Shown here: one piece after another, positions 2,904 to 64,000 of the stretch
How the letters are laid out: the number at the start of each line of letters is the position of its first letter
Numbering within the stretch: position 1 is the first letter of the stretch
Assembly (NCBI GenBank): GCA_050246315.1
Contig: JBFWWG010000007.1
Span: forward strand, 32,001-96,000
Direction of reading: 5' to 3'
DNA: 64,000 bases
From: Nitrospiraceae bacterium
GTDB lineage: Bacteria; Nitrospirota; Nitrospiria; Nitrospirales; Nitrospiraceae
Made by a program: the position numbers and the translations under genes
Notes under the pieces: generated by a model
What the model was told of the DNA's origin: nothing
What the model saw: only the letters and a program-made list of their open reading frames with translations
Database searches by the model: none

Positions 2904-4028
2904 TCATCCCAGCTTCATCAGTGAATCCAGCAGCCGCTGGTGAATGCGCCGAACCCGCTCGAGCTGCCCCTTGGCTGGAAACCGCTCATAAAAGCCGTCG
3001 GCCCGAAACTCCTTAACCAGCTTCGCCCAAGGTTGCAGCAGGTCGGCAAACGGCTTCGGCGATCGTTGCTGCTCCCAATCGCTGATGAGCTTTCGGTCGA
3101 TAATCAGGTCGTCCAGCACGCGGATCAGCGCCTTAAGCGTCACATCCCGCGTAAACATGTATCGCTCGTTGTTTCCCCATATTTCGCTCATCACTTCCTT
3201 GGCGCCCTTGAGATAGTCCCGCACGAGCGCATAACACCGGTCCGGCTTCATACCCAGGTGCGTGTCCATCCAGCGCTTATGCGCCGTCACGACTTTCAGC
3301 AACTCGTTGAAGATCTCGGACTGGAGCACCCACTTTTCCTGCTTGCTGCGTCCGCCCAGCCGGTTGATCTTGTATTGGAGGGGCGAGTCTGCCTCTTCAT
3401 AGAGCAGATTCACTACCTTGGCGGTGAACTTCTTCTCCGGACTTTCCCAGGAAACCTTTTCGTACAGATCCACGAGATGCGACCGGTTGATGCGCGTGTG
3501 GGTCGAGTTGATAATCACGAACATCTCGGTGGCGAAGTCTGCGCTGCGCCCATCGAACAGCACGCAAGGCACTTCCACCTGCTCAATCTGATCCGGGTGC
3601 CTGTCCTGAAAAAAGTGAAGGCCGGCCAGTCGGTGCTGGCCGTCGATCACCAGGTACTTACCGTTCGGCTCGCTCAGATGCCCCAGTGTTTCATTCCCGT
3701 CGAGCTTTTGGAACCGCAAGGTTTCATCGGTGAACAAGAGCACGGTACCGGGAATCATGGGCTGCGTCACGACCGTCTCGTAGAAGTTCACAATCTGTTT
3801 GATTTTCTGGCGGTTCAAGATACGTTGAAAACCCCTCTCGCTCCGCTCGATGCCTGCGATAAACTTGGCTACTTCGTCGTGCTCGGATACTTTCCCTTCC
3901 GCGATTTCCTCGCCTTCGAAATAGTAGCGGCTCGTGAACCGAACTTTGCGCAACAGGTCCTGCGCCTTGTATGAGATAAAATAGAACGTGCCTTCCTTCT
4001 GGCGGATCCGCGTTGCGAGCATCGTCAC
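2904..4028 (-). CDS. DGQHR-domain (DndB-like, ParB/Srx-fold) protein
   Basis: FQRILN motif, 'LVIDGQHRLAGL', 'EMFVIINSTH'. Confidence 0.88.
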   Translation of the reverse strand: MTMLATRIRQKEGTFYFISYKAQDLLRKVRFTSRYYFEGEEIAEGKVSEHDEVAKFIAGIERSERGFQRILNRQKIKQIVNFYETVVTQPMIPGTVLLFTDETLRFQKLDGNETLGHLSEPNGKYLVIDGQHRLAGLHFFQDRHPDQIEQVEVPCVLFDGRSADFATEMFVIINSTHTRINRSHLVDLYEKVSWESPEKKFTAKVVNLLYEEADSPLQYKINRLGGRSKQEKWVLQSEIFNELLKVVTAHKRWMDTHLGMKPDRCYALVRDYLKGAKEVMSEIWGNNERYMFTRDVTLKALIRVLDDLIIDRKLISDWEQQRSPKPFADLLQPWAKLVKEFRADGFYERFPAKGQLERVRRIHQRLLDSLMKLG

Positions 4029-14455: not shown

Positions 14456-16054
14456 TCACGGCGCGTCGGCGGCGCATCGGAATCCCAAGGTGGGTCCCCA
14501 ATAGGTCATCTCGTCCCATCCGCGATAGCTCGTCTGGAGTTCGAGTGGACCCTGCCCCCAATCACCGCCTCGAAGGACCCGGAACGAACCTCTCGGCGGT
14601 CCCTGAGGGTCGCGCGGTGGAGCCACCGCATAAAAGTCCTCGGCATACCAGTCCTTGACCCACTCCCACACGTTCCCGGTCAGGTCCAGCGCACCATAGG
14701 GGGATGCTCCCTCCTGGAAACTCCCAACCGGTTGCGGCTCACCATGGTTCGTCTGGTTCTCGCCGTTCTTTCCCCGGCTGAGAATCGGATCCCTGTCGTT
14801 CCCCCAGGCATAGCGTCTCCCATCGACTCCCCGCGCGGCCTTTTCCCATTCCGCTTCGGTGGGCAATCGCTGGCCGGCCCACTGGCAAAATGTGCGGGCT
14901 TGCATCCAGGTCACGCTGGTCACGGGATACTGGCCCAGGGCTTGATCCTCGAATGGGGCGCGGACCTTGGGCGGCTGGCAGACTCCCGCCTCCACGCAAC
15001 GGCGATAGCGGGCATTCGTGACTTCATACTTGTCGATTCGATAGGCGCTCAAGTGCACAGCATGCACAGGTCGCGCATCCGGCAAGCCATCGTCCGATCC
15101 CATCAGGAACTCCCCCTCCGGGATCAGCAACAGGTCCTCGTGAGCGACCACGTCGCGCGCCCTCGGCCGCTGGATCTCGGTCTGTTGGACCGGCGCGGAA
15201 GGCTCCCGCTCCCTGGATGCGGAGGGACCGGGATTGGACTCGCGCGCCGGGCGATCGTTCGACGCACGTGGTGGACGAGACGAGGTGCCGGCCTCCTCGG
15301 CCTTGGCTCGCGCCGAGGTCCCCGCGCCAGGAGACGGCGGATCGCTGCGCACGGTTTCAATCCGGACCGTCACACGCGCGAGTTCACGAACGAGGTCGCC
15401 GTTCTTGTCGTCGGCCTTGGTCTCTCGACGGGTTTTGCCGATCGCGCTGAAATCAAACTCGGGGATGTTGGCGAGCAATGGCGTGGCGTAACTCAGCGGC
15501 ACGGCGAACGACATCCCTTCGGGAATGATGCCCGATGGATGGCTGAATTTGGTCGTCAGGATCCCGATGATTTCGCCGCGTCGGTTGAACACCGGCCCTC
15601 CGCTATTTCCTGGATTGATCGCGGCATCGACTTGAAACACCCGCCGCACTCCCTTGGTGCGCATCGCCGCGATCCGGCCACGCGTCACCGAGATATCCTT
15701 CAACCCGAACGGGAAACCGATGGTGATGACCTCCTGGTCCAGTCGGACCGATCCGGCATACCCGAGCGCCGCCTCGGAGAGTCCCACGGTATCGATTTTG
15801 AGCAGGGCGAGATCGTGCTCCTGATCCGAGCTCACGATCAACGCCGGCGCGCGAAACTCGCCGGGCGTGACCACAACGATGCGCCGCGCGCCCGCGACCA
15901 CATGGTACGCCGTCAGGATGTAGCCGTCGGAATGGACGATCGCACCGCTGCCGGACGGTCGTTCGGACGGTAGAGCCGAGGGCTCCGCCGCGCCGAATTG
16001 CGCCTGCAGCAGGACCAACCCTCCGAGAAGGACGAACAATCGGGCAGACGTCAT
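14456..16054 (-). CDS. Exported trypsin-like (S1C) serine protease fused to a C-terminal FGE-sulfatase (SUMF1-like) domain
   Basis: Signal peptide; TAYHVV/DLALL/GNSGGP triad; FLMGS, RLPTEAEWEKAARG, DLTGNVWEW, GFRC; ATG overlaps the upstream stop (ATGA). Confidence 0.9.
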   Translation of the reverse strand: MTSARLFVLLGGLVLLQAQFGAAEPSALPSERPSGSGAIVHSDGYILTAYHVVAGARRIVVVTPGEFRAPALIVSSDQEHDLALLKIDTVGLSEAALGYAGSVRLDQEVITIGFPFGLKDISVTRGRIAAMRTKGVRRVFQVDAAINPGNSGGPVFNRRGEIIGILTTKFSHPSGIIPEGMSFAVPLSYATPLLANIPEFDFSAIGKTRRETKADDKNGDLVRELARVTVRIETVRSDPPSPGAGTSARAKAEEAGTSSRPPRASNDRPARESNPGPSASREREPSAPVQQTEIQRPRARDVVAHEDLLLIPEGEFLMGSDDGLPDARPVHAVHLSAYRIDKYEVTNARYRRCVEAGVCQPPKVRAPFEDQALGQYPVTSVTWMQARTFCQWAGQRLPTEAEWEKAARGVDGRRYAWGNDRDPILSRGKNGENQTNHGEPQPVGSFQEGASPYGALDLTGNVWEWVKDWYAEDFYAVAPPRDPQGPPRGSFRVLRGGDWGQGPLELQTSYRGWDEMTYWGPTLGFRCAADAP

Positions 16055-16830
16055 TTCTTGATCGGGATCACCACGCTGATCGCCCCGGCGTTGTGGCCGA
16101 GCTGAAGCCCTTCCTTGGGATAGCCCATCTTGTCGATCGCCCCCTTCGGCTCGCCATGGCAATCCAGACAGTGCCGCGTGGCATACAAGGGAAACATGAG
16201 TCGCAGTGCGCCACTCCGCACCGTGATCTCGGTGATGGTCTTTTCCCTCGGATAGCTTGGATCGGAGAAATCCCGCAAGGCGGCCTGTTCAAACGGATCG
16301 GGGGCGTTGAGAGGATTGCGTGGAGCCAGCGAGGTCTGTTTCAGCCGGACTCCGGTCTGTTTCGTGAATTGGGCGGCTGTTCGTGCGCCGAACACGGCCG
16401 GGATGAACCCGGTCCTCCCACCATCTGAGCGGTCGGCCTGACCCTCCGCTTCCGTTACCACCCGTTTACTGACGGAGACCAGTGCCTGGAGAAGGCGAGT
16501 GGCCTTCGCCGACAAGCGAGCCGTGTCCAGATGGTTCAGGTCAACACTCGAACGGCTCCGGAAGACTTCGATGAGCTGCCGCTCGAAGACCTCCGCTGTG
16601 AATTCTTTTGAGTCGTGGCTGGCACCATCGAAGAGAGGCTGGTTCTCGTTGATGACCGAGCGTCCTGAATCGAGGAGCACGGCCAGGAGCCGTGCGGTTT
16701 TCTCTGTCTCGATCAGTGCGTCGAGGGTGGGACCAGCATCACCCTTGCGAGGCGAGGCAGGTTCCGCAAGCACTGTGGCGGCGCCAACCAGCCACACGGC
16801 CATTCCCCACCGCAGGACCATCTGCGTCAT
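16051..16830 (-). CDS. Periplasmic DUF3365/Tll0287-like c-type heme protein
   Basis: Signal peptide, 'PRNPLNAPDPFE', CLDCH heme motif, GAISV; GAGGAGG RBS before ATG 16830. Confidence 0.85.
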   Translation of the reverse strand: MTQMVLRWGMAVWLVGAATVLAEPASPRKGDAGPTLDALIETEKTARLLAVLLDSGRSVINENQPLFDGASHDSKEFTAEVFERQLIEVFRSRSSVDLNHLDTARLSAKATRLLQALVSVSKRVVTEAEGQADRSDGGRTGFIPAVFGARTAAQFTKQTGVRLKQTSLAPRNPLNAPDPFEQAALRDFSDPSYPREKTITEITVRSGALRLMFPLYATRHCLDCHGEPKGAIDKMGYPKEGLQLGHNAGAISVVIPIKK

Positions 16831-38979: not shown

Positions 38980-39912
38980 TCACAGCTCCTGCAGTTTCCC
39001 GCGGCAGGAATCCACTGTCTCGTATCCCTTATCAGCTAGAACCGCCGCGAGGTCCCGTTCCAGCCGCTCGAACACCTCCACACCTTCTTCAACCAGCACC
39101 GTTCCGACCTGGATCGCAGACGCTCCACAGAGAATGTGCTCGAAGGCATCGATCCCTCGGACAACCCCCCCCGTACCGATAATCGGCACGCGACCCTCCA
39201 GCAGCTTCCAAAAGGCCCGGACATTGGCCAGCGCCACAGGCTTGATGATGGCTCCTCCGAGTCCTCCGAAGCCGCCCTTGGGTTTGATCACCACCGACTC
39301 CTGCTCCGGATCGACGACCAGCGCGTTACCCACCGAATTAATCAGGGAGAGAAAATCCACCTCCGTACGACGGATCACCTCCGCCATCACCTGGTGGTGG
39401 GCAGGATCGAAATATGGGGGAAGCTTCACTCCCATGGGAACGGTGATCAGCGGGCGGACTCGCCTAAGCAGCCGCTCCGAGGCCTCAGGATCATAACCGA
39501 TTTGCGGTTTCCCGGGGATGTTTGGGCAGGACAGATTCACCTCGATCAGATCCGGCTTGCTATTATTGATCTCCTTGGCGATCACGACGAAATCGTCCTC
39601 GCACAGGCCGGCGACGCTGGCGATGACCGGCTTCTTGAAGGCCTGAAGCGAGGGGATCATCTCCGCGTAGGCGAGATAGCCCAGATTGGGCAAGCCCATG
39701 GAATTGATCGAACCAGATGAAAATCCGTAATACCGCGGCTCGGGGTTGCCCTGTCGGGCTTCCACGGTCATCGATTTGGTCACGATGGCTCCGGCACGAG
39801 ACCGGCCCAACCGTTCCAATTCTTCGCGCGTGACGCAGAGCGCCCCGGCGGCGTTCATGAAGCAGGAGGGGAATCGAACTCCCGAAATGATGGTCGATAA
39901 GTCCGGCGTCAT
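38980..39912 (-). CDS. pyrD: Dihydroorotate dehydrogenase, class 1A
   Basis: MNAAG, SINSMGLPN, NLSCPN catalytic Cys, KLPPY, IKPKGGFGGLGG. Confidence 0.92.
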   Translation of the reverse strand: MTPDLSTIISGVRFPSCFMNAAGALCVTREELERLGRSRAGAIVTKSMTVEARQGNPEPRYYGFSSGSINSMGLPNLGYLAYAEMIPSLQAFKKPVIASVAGLCEDDFVVIAKEINNSKPDLIEVNLSCPNIPGKPQIGYDPEASERLLRRVRPLITVPMGVKLPPYFDPAHHQVMAEVIRRTEVDFLSLINSVGNALVVDPEQESVVIKPKGGFGGLGGAIIKPVALANVRAFWKLLEGRVPIIGTGGVVRGIDAFEHILCGASAIQVGTVLVEEGVEVFERLERDLAAVLADKGYETVDSCRGKLQEL

Positions 39913-40625
39913 GGGGCGTCCTGTGGCATCACAGTTGATGGCTCCTCGTGAAGCGACCCGTCCTGCATCCGGCAGAGCCGATCGGCTTGCCGTGCCGCCG
40001 CATCACTGTGTGTGGCTAGCATGATAGTGCAGCCGAAGCGGTGCGGCAAGCTCCGCAAGAGCGCCAGGATCTCTTCGGCGGTTCGCGAATCCAGATTACC
40101 GGTCGGCTCATCCGCGATGAGGAGCCTCGGTCCATGGACAATTCCGCGCGCAATGGCGACGCGCTGTTGCTCTCCGCCCGAAAGCTCGTTCGGCCTGTGC
40201 CTAGCCCGGTCGCGAAGGCCGACCAGTTCCAGACATTCCTCTACCCGGGAGGACAGACTGCGCCCCGCACCACCGCTCAGCAACAGCGGCATGGCGACAT
40301 TCTCCTCGGCCGTCAAGGCAGGCAAGAGGTGGAAGGCCTGAAACACGATCCCGATCAAGTCTCTTCTGGCCCTCGTCCATTGGAGCGAAGACCAGGAACC
40401 GGTAGAGTGTCCATTCACGAGGATATCGCCGGACGTAGGCCGGTCGAGGCCAGCCACCAGGTTCAGCAGAGTGCTCTTACCACAACCGCTTGGCCCGGTC
40501 AGCGCAAGGTATTCTCCGGCTCCCACGGAGAGCGTGACGTCGCGCAAGGCTTGGACCGGTACCGGTCCTCGATCGTAGGTCTTGCTCACTGCGCGCAGTT
40601 GTATGATGTTGGTCTGGATCGACAT
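39909..40625 (-). CDS. ABC transporter ATP-binding protein (LolD/MacB-like)
   Basis: GPSGCGKST, LSGGEQQRVAIAR, ADEPTGNLD. Confidence 0.93.
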   Translation of the reverse strand: MSIQTNIIQLRAVSKTYDRGPVPVQALRDVTLSVGAGEYLALTGPSGCGKSTLLNLVAGLDRPTSGDILVNGHSTGSWSSLQWTRARRDLIGIVFQAFHLLPALTAEENVAMPLLLSGGAGRSLSSRVEECLELVGLRDRARHRPNELSGGEQQRVAIARGIVHGPRLLIADEPTGNLDSRTAEEILALLRSLPHRFGCTIMLATHSDAAARQADRLCRMQDGSLHEEPSTVMPQDAP

Positions 40626-40654
40626 GAGAAGCGGGCTCGTATAGCATATCCACC

Positions 40655-41431
40655 ATGTCGGTTGCACCCTTCCCCTTGACGGTTCCACAGTCATGGCCGA
40701 CAGGGATCGGATCCGTCGGGCGGCGCATCCTGAATCATCTTCTGCCCTTCTCGTGCGGTGCTTGCGGTATCGGCTTGACGGACGACCCCCTCCCTTTCAT
40801 CTGCCGACTCTGTTGGGCGCGGATCACACCGCTGCCACAACCTCGCTGTCCTCGCTGCGGTATCCCATTTGCCTCACCGCATACTTTGATCTATAGCCCC
40901 GACCACACCTGCCGGTCCTGCCGTCGCCACAAGCCGTCCTACACCCGAGCTTGGTCCCTCTTTCCTTACGAATCCTCTCTGCGGAACCTGGTCCATCTAC
41001 TCAAGTACAGGAAAAAGATCGCGCTGGGATCGGTCTTAGGTCGGTTGATGTGTGAGCACCTCCCTGCGCTTCCTGAGATCGATTTGGTCATGCCGGTGCC
41101 GCTGGCTCGCCAACGGCTGCTGGAGCGGGAGTACAACCAGTCCCTGTTGTTGGCGGATCCCATCTCCCGCGCCATCGGCAAACCGTTGGACTGGCACAGC
41201 CTCGTCCGTATCCGACCACGTACTCCCCAAACAGCGTTGCCTCGCCGGGCCCGGCTCAAGAATCTTCGACGCACCTTTGCGGTCGCCAACCCCGCACAAA
41301 TCTCCGGCCAGCGCGTGCTCCTGGTCGACGACGTCTTCACAACCGGCACGACGGTCAACGAATGTGCGAAAGCCCTTCGCAAGGCCGGCAGCGCCGCAGT
41401 ATATGTCGTGACGCTGACTCGAACCTTGTAG
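40655..41431 (+). CDS. comF: ComF-family protein (double zinc ribbon + PRTase)
   Basis: Four CxxC, REYNQS, LLVDDVFTTGTT. Confidence 0.9.
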   Translation: MSVAPFPLTVPQSWPTGIGSVGRRILNHLLPFSCGACGIGLTDDPLPFICRLCWARITPLPQPRCPRCGIPFASPHTLIYSPDHTCRSCRRHKPSYTRAWSLFPYESSLRNLVHLLKYRKKIALGSVLGRLMCEHLPALPEIDLVMPVPLARQRLLEREYNQSLLLADPISRAIGKPLDWHSLVRIRPRTPQTALPRRARLKNLRRTFAVANPAQISGQRVLLVDDVFTTGTTVNECAKALRKAGSAAVYVVTLTRTL

Positions 41432-60695: not shown

Positions 60696-60793
60696 GACAA
60701 GTTTGAGGCTGACAGGATTGAGGCGAATGAAATTATGGCCGGTTGCTTTCCGAGAGCGGCGTTGGGCATACTAGATCCCGAAAGGGCAGACCA

Positions 60794-61033
60794 ATGACCA
60801 GCGAACGTTGTCTCGTTCAGGACTGTACCGCCCGACCCTATGCGCCGGCAGGCACGGGCGCGATCTGTAAGCCGCATTTCATCGATTTCCTGACATGGCG
60901 CCGCCGCCGCGGGCTTCAGATGTTTCTGAAATACGCCGGCATGACCATGCCCGAGCGCGATGTGATCGTCGAAGAATGGCGCAAGACCGTCAAGGTCGAA
61001 GAAGCGCCGATCGCCCCGACTGCAAAACCCTGA
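60794..61033 (+). CDS. Small hypothetical protein with C-x4-C-x13-C-x2-H motif
   Basis: MTSERCLVQDC...ICKPHF. Confidence 0.65.
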   Translation: MTSERCLVQDCTARPYAPAGTGAICKPHFIDFLTWRRRRGLQMFLKYAGMTMPERDVIVEEWRKTVKVEEAPIAPTAKP

Positions 61034-61212
61034 GTCGTCCGCCCCGTTGGTTTACTTCTCTCCGTCGAACTGTACCTCACGCCCTGATTGTCCCCCTCTT
61101 CCCAAAGCAGACGTATTTGTGGCAAACGAAGCCGCAGGGCAATGCAAGTCGTTCGCGGCAGGCACAGGAACTAAACGTATCTGATGGAACGCTGGCGACG
61201 CCACCGATCACC

Positions 61213-64000
61213 CTACCGTTGGCCTTCGTCACCAACACCGTCGCCTGACTTGTCGTCGTACTCGTCATAGCTCCTGTTTCGCATTTCCTTTCTGGACTCA
61301 GCGCGCCGCTGTTCCGATGCAATCCTGAGGTCGAGTTCTGCGATATGACTTTCGGCGAACGCCCTAACCGTGGACCTTTCATCTGTTAGCCATTCTGTCA
61401 ATGATTCCTTCCTGGCCTGCAATGCTTCTGAAAAGCCAAATTCTCCCCTTACAACTCCAGTGTTGTCGATACTGACCCGGACCTCGTTCAATTTGTGCTG
61501 GTCATCTGGAAACCGCGACACAATTTCCTTCAACACAACGTGGACAGAAGTCACACCGTCATAGTTCTGCAGTATCGCCAGCGCGAAATCTGCCTCCGTA
61601 TCACCGCCGGTTTTTACCAAGTCGGCAAGTGCGGTAGCGAACTCCGGAGTGCAGTTGGTGAACACATTGCTAAGCAGGCGCCCCCCCTCGAAACTGGAAA
61701 AGCCTTCGGTCTTGAGTGAACCACGATAGCCCTTTGCTGATTGCGAGCGACGGGTTCTTCGAGAGCTCCTTTTCAAGGCCATGGAACTGAAACGGCACCG
61801 CCTCGAAGCGATCTTCGTCCTCACCGTCAGCGGCCTCATGGGAAAGCCGAACTCCGAAATAGTCCCAGACTGCCTCTGGCTGGCGATCGGCAAGCCGGAC
61901 CAAGACACGCTCGGCTTTATAGTTTAGCCTGCGAAGATAGCCCAGATTTTTCAAGAGCTGCACCGTCACCTCCTGGGTAAGTTCCTCATAGAACTTCGTG
62001 GCCTTCTGCAGAAACCACCCTTGCGAGACCCAACTCGGGTCTTTTCGGTCATTTAGAAAGGCCAGGGCGTCACGCACGAACGTGTCTGGGTCTGCGATCT
62101 TCTCCGTTCCGTAATGCTCCAAAGCGAAGAGCAGGCATTCAATGACAGCTGTTTGGTCGCCTTTTTCAATCGCGCGTTTCAGTAGGCGAGTAGCGAAATC
62201 GGGCCTCTTCACATCGGAGTACCGCAGGTGCCGTGCTAGGCCAGTGAGGTTTTTGGCAGACTCAAGCTCACTCTCCAAGATCCGCTCATAAATATCAGCT
62301 CGGCTGCCCACAGCGAGTCCATTGAGGAAGCCAGCAAGAAAGATGCGTAGGTCATCCGAGGCCTTTGCTAAAAACCTGTCAGCTACTTCGGGCTTGCTCT
62401 CAGCCAGCTTGCTGATGAAATTGCCGAAAACCGGGAAGGTGGCAAGATCGCTCGACCTCGTTTGCGCGCAACGCTCTACCAGGTCGAACCAGTCGTTCTC
62501 ATTCTCCGGGTTGATCTCATCGATGTAGCGGTCAGCTTCACTATGCCGATATTGGTCGGCTCTTTCTAGTTCGAACTCCTCGTCGGTCCAGTGATCTGGA
62601 TAAGCAGATTCAAAGCCTACCAGGACTTTATATCGGACAAACCGATCATCGGTGTTGATTGTGTCTCGAAACCTAAAGATGGCAGCCACGAGTGCCATGG
62701 CTTCGGCCTGACAACCGAACCGATTGCCCGAGTCTTCTGTAAGACCCTTCACCCTGAAATAGTCGTAGAGGAAGCGGTGCTCTAAGTGCTGAAGCAGCTC
62801 GTAGCTCATCACGCCAGCGCGTTCCAACACGAAGTTAACAATGCGTGTGGCATCCTTGAGCGTGATGGACAAGAGCTCATTAGAATATTGCCCTCGATGG
62901 GGAGTCCTTGTTGCGGCGTCCAGCGATGAAAGAACTGCGCGCTTCTGTACATCGTCGGTCGATCTATCATAGGCTGCGAAAAGGACTTTGATTGCCTTGT
63001 CGCGCACTTCTCTGAGCTGATCGGATGCGGGCACGGCGCCTGTGCTAAAGACTACGGAGTCTGCCTTCCACTTTGTGCCGCTGATGTCTGATTGAATCGC
63101 TTCGGTCCAGACGGCAAGAGCGATGGGCCGGATCTTGTCCATCTCGACCTCGTTCATTTGAGCGAGGTGATCTACCAATGCCATCTGAAGCCTCGGCCCT
63201 ACCTGGTTGTACGCGTCGATGTTGTACTCGGACAGCTTCTTGACGGCGTTCACAATCTGCTGGCGAATGGCTTCGCTTGGCTCGTCCCGATAGATGTCGA
63301 TAAGCAGTTGCAGAGTTCCAACTATGTCGGCGTAGCGCAGATTCTCAACGATCTCCACGACAAGTCTCGTCACTGAATCGGCCTTGAAGCCCTCCATATT
63401 TCCGTAGGTCGTTTCCATCGGAACGGGCTCCGTGGCGCGCGCCGCTTTAACAGACCTCAGCAGAGGGCCTTTCAATGCCTCAAAGGCAGCCGGGAGGTCG
63501 TCGTAATTGGGAATGGCGTAATCTTTCAGTCCTGACAGAATCTCGTAACGCTCGTTGTTGTTCTGCGCATTGTCCAGCAGGTTGGCGATATCTTTGTCGA
63601 AGAGCTCCTTGCCTTGGAGGAGCCGTTCATATTCCTGCTGGGCTTTCTGAAACTCATATCCAGCCGGGATCAGATACTTGTCCATGATCCGAGCAAATCG
63701 GCTGGCGATACCTTTCATGGCTTTCTCGCCGTAGCCTTCGCCCAGCTTGTTCTTGTAGACGATGTCGTGTGAGGTCTCGGACCAAGCGTGCTCCAGAATG
63801 GTTTGGACCTGAATTTCGCACCGCAGGCCAGCGAATCTCGCATATTCTGGAAGGCGTAAGCGATCCTCGCGAAGCCGGACCGTGTAGTGAATTGCGCGAT
63901 ATTGCGCTCCTTGGTTCTCCGGGGTGGGGTGGTGGATCCTGGTCGAGTTCTCCTCGATCTCGAAATTTTCGTGAAATAGTGGTGAGGCCACGAAACGGTC
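61213..64000 (-). pseudogene. Large RelA/SpoT-domain protein, 5'-truncated by the window edge and frameshifted at a G7 tract (61681-61687)
   Basis: YRAIHY...CEIQVQTILEHAWSETSHDIVYK synthetase motifs; ORF 61670-63991 ends FQFRGG-APA* while ORF 61213-61908 continues GG-RLLSNVF. Confidence 0.8.

Follow-up and report, generated by a model that had tools for sequence, protein, structure and literature searches.

RelQ and RelP of Firmicutes (SAS1/YjbM and SAS2/YwaC) are small alarmone synthetases (SASs) of ~200-230 aa that stand alone and are inherited vertically. CapRel (PMC9712102), a fused toxin-antitoxin of the toxic SAS (toxSAS) type that senses phage capsid, is a single chain of 343-344 residues whose RelA/SpoT-type head leads into a regulatory or sensing C-terminal part. 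PANGU type I, as reported in a preprint (bioRxiv 10.64898/2026.04.06.716658), comprises a nucleoid-associated protein (NAP) sensor, Pag1A, and a GRel-type SAS, Pag1B, which makes pppGpp, is inert until a protein binds its non-catalytic domain and acts as an abortive-infection effector. Here we describe a RelA/SpoT synthetase gene in a stretch of 64,000 nucleotides from a Nitrospiraceae bacterium (contig C7:32001-96000 of a 4.39-Mb, 30-contig genome; the whole stretch is called the window below). The gene lay on the minus strand, reading right to left, at window positions 61213-64000. Our interpretation, to which we give about even odds, is that an autoinhibited sensor-effector, a horizontally mobile conflict system made up of one gene, is present here as a frameshifted and inactivated copy. 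As modelled, the intact protein of ~1014 aa is a synthetase head (residues 1-221) followed by an alpha-solenoid of the HEAT/ARM kind of ~600 aa and a conserved C-terminal domain of ~200 aa.

Gene structure and frameshift

A preliminary description of the window had reported a frame open past the right edge, and this frame continued for a further 258 nt to a GTG start at window-equivalent position 64258 (contig C7 96258), the start position of the homologues. Taken from the list of open reading frames (ORFs) and its translation, the upstream frame comprised 862 codons on the minus strand, from GTG 64258 to a TAG at 61670-61672, and its end was overlapped by a second minus-strand frame at 61213-61908. 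When aligned with intact relatives, the 862-codon frame accounted for columns 1-859 and the second frame resumed at the very next residue (columns 861-1015), with the junction reading ...FQFRGG / RLLSNVF... The +1 frameshift fell at a run of seven G (G7, 61681-61687), ~45 residues into the C-terminal domain, where intact relatives had six (G6) or an interrupted run. Across 28 relatives, after one spurious minus-strand motif match was dropped, the longest G run at this site was six in 8, five in 5, three in 7 and two in 8, and seven in none of the 28; several read TTCCAGTTTCGAGGGGGGCGCCTGCTT, which is the window sequence less one G. A tblastn search with residues 843-1014 of a relative (P0004) recovered the shifted frame at 73% identity (E 4e-77). 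The frames align and the G7 run has no counterpart in relatives, and we therefore read the locus as a gene of 1014 codons (859 + 155) with a +1 homopolymer insertion. Its parts in the window were:

61673-64000, minus strand: in-window part (residues 87-862) of the 862-codon frame (ORF lists; 75-86% identical over the full length to proteins of ~1014 aa)
63752-64000, minus strand: C-terminal two thirds of the SYNTH domain (Pfam PF04607, invariant columns, fold Z 17.8 to RelQ 5dec)
63596-63727, minus strand: predicted long helix, residues 178-221, completing the RelQ/RelP-like head and leading into the solenoid (AlphaFold2 models; RelQ/RelP alignment over residues 2-216)
61817-63589, minus strand: predicted HEAT/ARM-like alpha-solenoid, residues ~224-814, with two beta-hairpins (AlphaFold2 model, Foldseek, stand-alone homologues)
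61682-61816, minus strand: first 45 codons (residues 815-859) of the conserved C-terminal domain, in the upstream frame (alignment)
61681-61687, minus strand: G7 homopolymer, the frameshift site; intact relatives read TTC CAG TTT CGA GGG GGG CGC CTG (sequence, 28 relatives)
61670-61672, minus strand: premature TAG, three codons past the frameshift (sequence)
61213-61680, minus strand: shifted frame with the last 155 residues of the C-terminal domain (RLLSNVF... to ...GDEGQR), stop at 61213-61215 (alignment)

The exact 862-aa product was recorded on 12 contigs, and all sampled 31-mers of positions 61400-62000 were present in 20 runs from six studies (wastewater, sludge, bioreactor and landfill metagenomes). 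Contigs of four out of four runs, drawn from four studies, spanned 61400-62000 without a break, a difference or a gap, at word depths of 10-97; one of these runs may be the source of the assembly, the others are independent, and contigs can hide minority variants. Because the sequence was identical in the contigs of all four, the G7 run is real and no assembly slip: the allele is the majority sequence of the lineage and a genuine frameshift. Judging from its sequence, the copy in this genome is most likely inactive or decaying.

The preliminary description had also noticed a lower GC content than in the core genes, and this was borne out at the genome scale. The 3046-nt gene region had a GC content of 53.9% against a genome mean of 59.7% (standard deviation 2.1%), and only 1.65% of 4309 equal-sized genome windows were as low; in bins of 500 nt, GC was 51-56% over 61000-64000 vs 58-63% upstream. 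A promoter and terminator scan of the locus was uninformative, with 2 and 7 sites vs 1.5 and 3.4 in shuffles.

The synthetase head

Synthetases of the RelA/SpoT homologue (RSH) group are characterized by the motifs RxKxxxS, DxxGxR, ExQ and HxxxYK. The translation of the minus strand contained the motifs that the preliminary description had picked out (YRAIH, EIQVQT, HAWSE and HDIVYK), of which three were placed as follows:

63884-63901, minus strand: YRAIHY motif (translation)
63800-63817, minus strand: EIQVQT motif, catalytic (translation)
63752-63769, minus strand: HDIVYK motif (translation)

The RxK and catalytic Asp motifs, R44-x-K46 and D72-L-A-G75-x-R77, were likewise present, upstream and beyond the window edge. 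Pfam RelA_SpoT (PF04607) matched residues 44-171 with 41.3 bits (cut-off 27, E 2.2e-10), compared with 26.3 bits for the fragment inside the window alone, and a Pfam scan of the protein at E<=1 found no other family, with HD, TGS and ACT all absent. In an alignment of 76 full-length family members spanning 26-86% identity, Y6, R44, K46, D72, R77, E148, Q150, L155, H164, Y168, A199, W743, R804 and P822 were invariant. The first eleven of these, from Y6 to A199, stayed invariant in 77 sequences that included the window's own head, and S50, G75 and K169 were conserved in at least 90% of that head alignment. As the catalytic residues are invariant, the enzyme has been under purifying selection across the family, and in the window copy they are intact.

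A model of the window's own residues 1-225, folded alone, had a mean predicted local distance difference test (pLDDT) score of 94.9. Over model residues 2-216 it aligned with RelQ and RelP structures at Z 15.8-17.8 (183-190 residues aligned, rmsd 2.5-3.1 A), with VIA-align scores of Z 17.8 to 5dec_B and Z 17.4 to 6fgx_A and a Foldseek E of 2e-9. Other synthetases were more distant: CapRel at Z 12.0 (177 residues aligned), Rel at 11.7, an exported SAS at 11.4, Tas1 at 9.8 and FaRel/FaRel2 at 6.2-6.4. A profile search of the PDB agreed, with RelP (6fgk, E 2.3e-13) and RelQ the sole alarmone-synthetase structures matched at E<=1, and no match of the head to CapRel, FaRel2 or Tas1 at that threshold. 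On these models the head is a complete SAS of the RelQ/RelP type and probably not of the CapRel type.

The preliminary description had allowed for a nucleotide or a tRNA pyrophosphokinase. Since RelQ and RelP are nearer in fold than CapRel and FaRel2, tRNA chemistry like that of CapRel is not favoured; acceptor specificity itself cannot be read from these sequence and fold comparisons. By analogy with RelQ and RelP, the product of the head is most likely (p)ppGpp. The genome holds one long RSH elsewhere (a 795-aa frame on contig C4). In a viral structure library only the head matched phage RelA/SpoT proteins, with no credible match to the solenoid, and a search of a phage genome collection gave one partial head match.

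The solenoid and C-terminal domain

The preliminary description had pictured a single chain with about 800 aa of helical, repeat-like sequence lacking TGS and ACT domains, and structural modelling upheld this. The nearest intact homologue, of 86% identity, was modelled with AlphaFold2 on the alignment of 76 members, and the result had a pLDDT of 92.1 and a predicted template modelling score (pTM) of 0.78, values that suggest a defined arrangement of head and solenoid. The model consisted of a helix at residues 3-31, an alpha/beta core at 40-170, the long helix at 178-221, stacked helices up to ~960 and a terminal helix of 40 residues; residues 178-1004 were almost wholly helical, with two beta-hairpins (281-288 and 391-408) breaking the stack. 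In Foldseek searches of the PDB, the helical body resembled transportin-3, CAND1, importins, exportins and PR65 (E 4e-6 to 1e-4, probability 1.00) with template modelling (TM) scores of only 0.15-0.26, which are as low as is expected for flexible solenoids. There was no Pfam HEAT match in this protein, and one stand-alone relative of the solenoid has a precomputed match to PF02985. Among close relatives, identity was 0.77 in the solenoid vs 0.72 in the head, and among distant relatives 0.30 vs 0.46. A weak profile match of P0004 residues 221-336 (window-equivalent ~63250-63597) to the fungal HET-s 'small s protein' (PDB 2wvq and 2wvn; E 0.0014) may be due to chance.

The solenoid and C-terminal domain also occurred without the synthetase. 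In a tblastn search of plasmids, two records matched residues 298-976 only: plasmid pPg_05 of Pseudanabaena galeata and plasmid 9 of Legionella adelaidensis, which encode stand-alone solenoid proteins of 802 and 806 aa. Residues 309-999 of P0004 aligned with residues 117-802 of a stand-alone solenoid protein at 26% identity over ~700 residues (E 2e-77). Each plasmid solenoid gene was preceded, 3 nt upstream, by a gene for a PIN_12 protein (PF16289) of 332-346 aa, and on the Legionella plasmid an integrase gene adjoined the pair. PIN_12, formerly DUF4935, is a family of VapC-type PIN-like nucleases of unknown function according to PMC5499597. Read from gene content, a PIN_12 protein takes the place of the synthetase here, and effector swaps of this sort are seen in conflict systems. 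In Pseudanabaena, the plasmid pair was bordered just upstream by two genes on the opposite strand, one for a PIN-domain protein and a small hypothetical one; downstream came a hypothetical gene of 207 nt, again on the opposite strand, and beyond it the gene for a 1021-aa hypothetical protein without Pfam family (L109 7383-10448, plus strand).

A word-indexed profile search found 16 solenoid proteins of 548-826 aa, all of them stand-alone, and other solenoid fusions were absent among these 16. In the ESM Atlas, the closest clusters without RelA, of 789 and 798 aa with scores of 0.88-0.89, are leads only. The C-terminal domain of ~200 aa was found fused to PilZ in 21 of 35 genomes of one Nitrospirota genus (g10), with 56% identity to residues 785-1009 (E 1e-76). 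These PilZ fusions are ~300-450 aa long (L120 1087-2178, plus strand, and L122 1438-2778, minus strand) and adjoin genes whose translations read like phage-tail-tube or contractile-injection-system proteins.

Family size and distribution

The family was large and its distribution uneven. A word-indexed search returned 844 matches; among the best 120, relatives were 75-86% identical and nearly all of 1008-1017 aa, and those named came from Nitrospira, Gallionella and Sedimenticola metagenome-assembled genomes (MAGs), listed as 'RelA/SpoT domain-containing protein'. An exhaustive search of representatives of 50%-identity clusters gave 5330 matches at E<=1e-3, 2155 at 1e-10 and 538 at 1e-30, and the best 150 of these were mostly of 990-1020 aa and colinear with the whole query at 26-59% identity. 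Lateral transfer is indicated by the identities of 70-86% found among Nitrospira, Gallionella, Sedimenticola, Thiobacillus and a MAG of a cyanobacterium. The gene was present in 2 of 41 related genomes, its own included, and in none of three genomes of the same genus. Across 401 Nitrospirota genomes, eight held a full-length or remnant copy and four of these eight were damaged, by the frameshift described here, an in-frame TGA, an N-terminal truncation and reduction to a remnant, respectively. Two relatives were longer than the norm. P0059 (1088 aa, 78% identical) has precomputed Pfam matches to HTH_3 and a phage CI repressor beside RelA_SpoT, and may be a fused regulator or a merged gene call. 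The homologue on Rhizobium rhizogenes plasmid pC6.5d (L111 5791-9723) is annotated as a 1310-aa 'poly-gamma-glutamate hydrolase family protein', perhaps reflecting either an extra C-terminal domain of ~260 aa or a merger with the next gene.

Neighbourhoods of the homologues were evaluated in 64 loci with near-full-length matches (7 genomes, 3 viral contigs and 54 metagenomes). The frame was uninterrupted in 55 of them and interrupted in nine. An all-against-all BLAST of 277 neighbour ORFs from the 64 loci detected no conserved partner or antitoxin, only synteny among near-identical Nitrospira contigs. For marker counts we used 53 loci, leaving out the redundant L015, L031, L036, L044, L046 and L048 and also L032, L066, L083, L103 and L104, which had no neighbour ORF of at least 75 aa within two positions. 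A marker of mobile DNA, toxin-antitoxin (TA) or defence genes lay within two ORFs in 18 of the 53, a count that has no background figure; the markers were integrase, rve transposase, resolvase, ParA/VirC1, prophage terminase, CopG/BrnT, RES, HipA, MNT-type nucleotidyltransferase, Mrr_cat, SoFic, T5orf172 and the PADLOC candidates PDC-M63A and PDC-S05. Some settings were overtly mobile. One copy (L018), in a cyanobacterial MAG, had the portal gene of a prophage on one side and its terminase gene on the other, three full-length copies were on IMG/VR contigs, two of them adjoining integrases, and the Rhizobium rhizogenes plasmid copy lay among IS5, integrase, VapC/Phd, IS256 and SIR2 genes.

The variable slot in this genome and its sisters

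The window gene itself was flanked by ordinary genes, encoding a PhoD phosphatase, a SnoaL_3 protein, an EamA transporter, an O-methyltransferase, an M32 carboxypeptidase, Fur and an ABC transporter. The preliminary description had placed it at the edge of a defence island, an idea that the housekeeping character of both flanks contradicts. In a sister genome (G002) the flanks were 95-97% identical to those of this genome; the similarity ended 2-3 nt past the stop of a 96-aa ORF (~61035) and resumed ~3.4 kb further on, beyond the start of the RelA/SpoT gene. The left edge of this variable slot is thus marked by:

60743-61033, plus strand: 96-aa ORF, left edge of the variable slot (kept in sister genomes G001 and G002; no Pfam family)

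In G002 the slot held a PemK/MazF-like toxin, a ribbon-helix-helix (RHH) antitoxin-type protein and an uncharacterized 319-aa protein. In a second sister (G001) it held an alpha/beta-hydrolase-like protein, a fragment of a BsuBI/PstI endonuclease, an IS5 transposase in two frames, an Mrr_cat protein and a Y1 (IS200-like) transposase. With TA, restriction and insertion-sequence genes in the slots of its sisters, the locus is therefore a slot whose cargo is of a selfish or defensive kind. It does not amount to an island, and the RelA/SpoT gene is its sole cargo in this genome. No tRNA gene was found in 18 kb around the locus, and there were no direct or inverted repeats flanking the cargo, only a cluster resembling repetitive extragenic palindromic (REP) elements on the right side.

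That cluster (L001 4640-5080, window-equivalent 64640-65080) consisted of short palindromic and direct repeats with arms of 18-23 nt and a 47-nt exact direct repeat. Pieces of it matched dozens of places in three genomes of the same genus, giving it the look of REP elements or miniature inverted-repeat transposable elements (MITEs). The Y1 transposase in the G001 slot is IS200-like and of the type of REP-associated tyrosine transposases (RAYTs). The 96-aa ORF always bordered the slot in G001 and G002, and its translation showed a Cys/His spacing like that of a zinc-binding site. Further to the right, a 187-aa ORF beside Fur (L001 9452-10015, minus strand, window-equivalent 69452-70015) was considered as a Panacea-type antitoxin and rejected, as Pfam gave nothing relevant even at E<=5.

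Interpretation

An intact SAS head, a large scaffold, an interchangeable effector and genes that are solitary, patchy, transferred and often decaying form a pattern characteristic of conflict systems. By analogy with such systems, we postulate that in the resting state the solenoid and C-terminal domain would hold the synthetase inactive. The head might then be released when the solenoid binds a ligand, either a protein of a phage or mobile element or a host factor that infection or stress has changed. Once released, it would move pyrophosphate from ATP to a nucleotide acceptor, most likely GDP or GTP to yield (p)ppGpp, and the result may be a growth arrest of the abortive-infection or addiction type. 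In this genome, the extra G in the G6 run cuts the protein inside its C-terminal domain. Much of the sensor-effector idea put forward in the preliminary description thus survives, in the form of a solitary, patchily distributed and laterally moving cargo in a variable slot whose solenoid is paired elsewhere with PIN_12; its defence island does not, and the copy at hand is frameshifted.

Several observations weigh against a conflict system. The head is closest to non-toxic housekeeping SAS enzymes, and many homologue loci, this one included, are flanked by housekeeping genes. The enrichment of defence genes that the preliminary description had named as a check was not seen, as PADLOC models matched 10 of 150 neighbour ORFs of the 53 loci vs 12 of 55 control ORFs of the window (E<=1e-5), the control being a crude one from a single genome with larger genes and with mostly generic ATPase, protease and permease similarities. 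Among the ordinary-looking control matches were window ORFs 2904-4028 (minus strand), 14456-16162 (minus strand) and 39909-41431, and the models involved included DpdB/DndB-like, RT-protease/LmuA-like protease domain, mad3/mad8 and PsyrT/ShosT-like ones, probably all generic similarities. The match of PADLOC model PDC-S33 to the head corresponded only to positions 60-211 of a 349-position profile (152 positions), with none over the solenoid. Lastly, the solenoid had no hypervariable stretch, and its conservation is easier to reconcile with a conserved ligand than with an arms race against proteins of phages.

A more far-reaching version of the conflict reading can be offered tentatively. The solenoid and C-terminal domain may be the portable sensing module of an undescribed family of one- or two-gene abortive-infection or addiction systems, acting in cis on a RelQ-like synthetase, with (p)ppGpp as the immune output, and in trans with a PIN_12 nuclease, while the last 200 residues would have been captured by a PilZ protein (c-di-GMP-binding type) in one Nitrospirota genus. 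Because the solenoid is conserved and not hypervariable, such a module would keep watch over some conserved part of the host, or detect a feature that invaders conserve, and would not be pursuing fast-evolving phage proteins.

The alternative that fares best, though we think it unlikely, is an accessory physiological stress synthetase whose solenoid binds to a conserved machine of the cell or to a protein with a bound metabolite and adjusts ordinary (p)ppGpp levels, with no role in conflict. A head like RelQ and RelP in both sequence and fold, a well-conserved solenoid without a variable patch, loci that often lie among housekeeping genes with PADLOC neighbour matches no higher than in the control, and 64 loci lacking an antitoxin-like partner are all what such an enzyme would predict. 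It explains far less well why a genome already equipped with a long RSH should carry the gene, why its spread is extremely patchy with 70-86% identity across phyla, why sister genomes use the same cargo slot for TA and restriction genes, why copies sit on prophage and plasmid DNA, and why the solenoid is paired with a PIN_12 nuclease elsewhere and frames are often broken.

That the architecture and logic are those of a conflict system and the head is instead a translation toxin that pyrophosphorylates the tRNA 3'-CCA end (CapRel, FaRel2 and PhRel2-like), or an ATP-draining (pp)pApp synthetase (FaRel and Tas1-like), seems improbable to us. The higher Z values of RelQ and RelP, by 4-6 units, with the whole head aligned including its flanking helices, argue against it, as do the low scores of FaRel and FaRel2. 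These reactions are nonetheless the ones used by validated toxSAS effectors (PMC11782079 and 10.1101/2021.04.30.441581); CapRel was the next-best structural match after RelQ and RelP, with Tas1 also matched, and PDC-S33 matched the head.

It is very improbable that the window copy still works, as an 862-aa protein with or without a separate C-terminal fragment or through transcriptional or translational slippage at G7: the recurrence of the allele across runs and contigs indicates that the lineage carries it stably, all catalytic residues of the head are intact and both frames are open over the whole homologous length, but the frame breaks within a domain conserved as one piece, the other three damaged Nitrospirota copies carry different lesions, which looks like decay, and the promoter and terminator scan gave nothing above shuffles.

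If the conflict reading holds, the family would be a second, structurally unrelated solution to the idea embodied in CapRel, in which one protein both senses and poisons. A giant HEAT-like sensor joined to a normal-looking (p)ppGpp synthetase head would link the messenger of the stringent response to conflict with mobile elements, and would do so in environmental bacteria that include nitrifiers important in wastewater treatment. Hundreds of 50%-identity clusters belong to this family, catalogued at most as unnamed or 'PRel2' synthetases, and the pairing with PIN_12 provides a first functional context for that nuclease family. The window gene itself is a genuine frameshifted allele, and probably non-functional.

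Comparison with known systems

The name PRel2 comes from a subfamily in Jimmy et al. 2020 (PMC7229694), whose trimmed synthetase sequences carry what look, when compared by eye, like the same distinctive motifs; the printed members compared were entries for Bordetella genomosp. 11, Henriciella and Hyphomicrobium. A table of that paper lists Gallionella capsiferriformans ES-2 with PRel2[S], its main text does not mention PRel2, and the accessions of ten family clusters had no overlap with those entries of its supplement that were compared. A literature search returned no relevant paper on PRel2, none mentioning PDC-S33 and no description of a synthetase-solenoid fusion, the search extending to part of a PNAS supplement, with bioRxiv supplements outside its scope. 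As far as this search reached, the extension of ~800 aa and its relatives are undescribed.

RelQ and RelP (PDB 5dec, 5ded, 6ewz, 6ex0, 6fgk and 2be3) share their catalytic motifs with the head and match its whole fold, including the N-terminal helix and the long C-terminal helix. The present family differs from them in its additional ~800 residues and in being sporadic and laterally transferred. PDC-S33, the PADLOC hidden Markov model (HMM) that matched the head, did so over residues 33-190 (E 4.8e-14).

The order of parts within one polypeptide is that of CapRel (7ztb), which is likewise found on prophages and mobile DNA with no separate antitoxin gene. The CapRel head is the weaker match (Z 12.0 vs Z 17-18 for RelQ and RelP), and its small C-terminal part contrasts with a HEAT-like solenoid of ~800 aa to which it has no detectable relation: the alignments of 7ztb and 9erv cover model residues 1-202 only, and the C-terminal ~800 aa have other relatives than the CapRel C-terminal domain. 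CapRel is described as modifying tRNA, whereas by analogy a guanine-nucleotide product is favoured for this family.

PANGU shares with the family an SAS head and uses its alarmone synthetase as an abortive-infection effector. It differs in being a two-gene system with a nucleoid protein as its sensor and with an acidic C-terminal domain of small size; the loci of this family showed no NAP gene as a neighbour. The plasmid PIN_12 pairs have a solenoid and C-terminal domain homologous to those described here, and their effector is a separate nuclease gene upstream, whereas this family carries its synthetase in cis. The family is best seen as a new variation on the theme of a sensor fused to an SAS.

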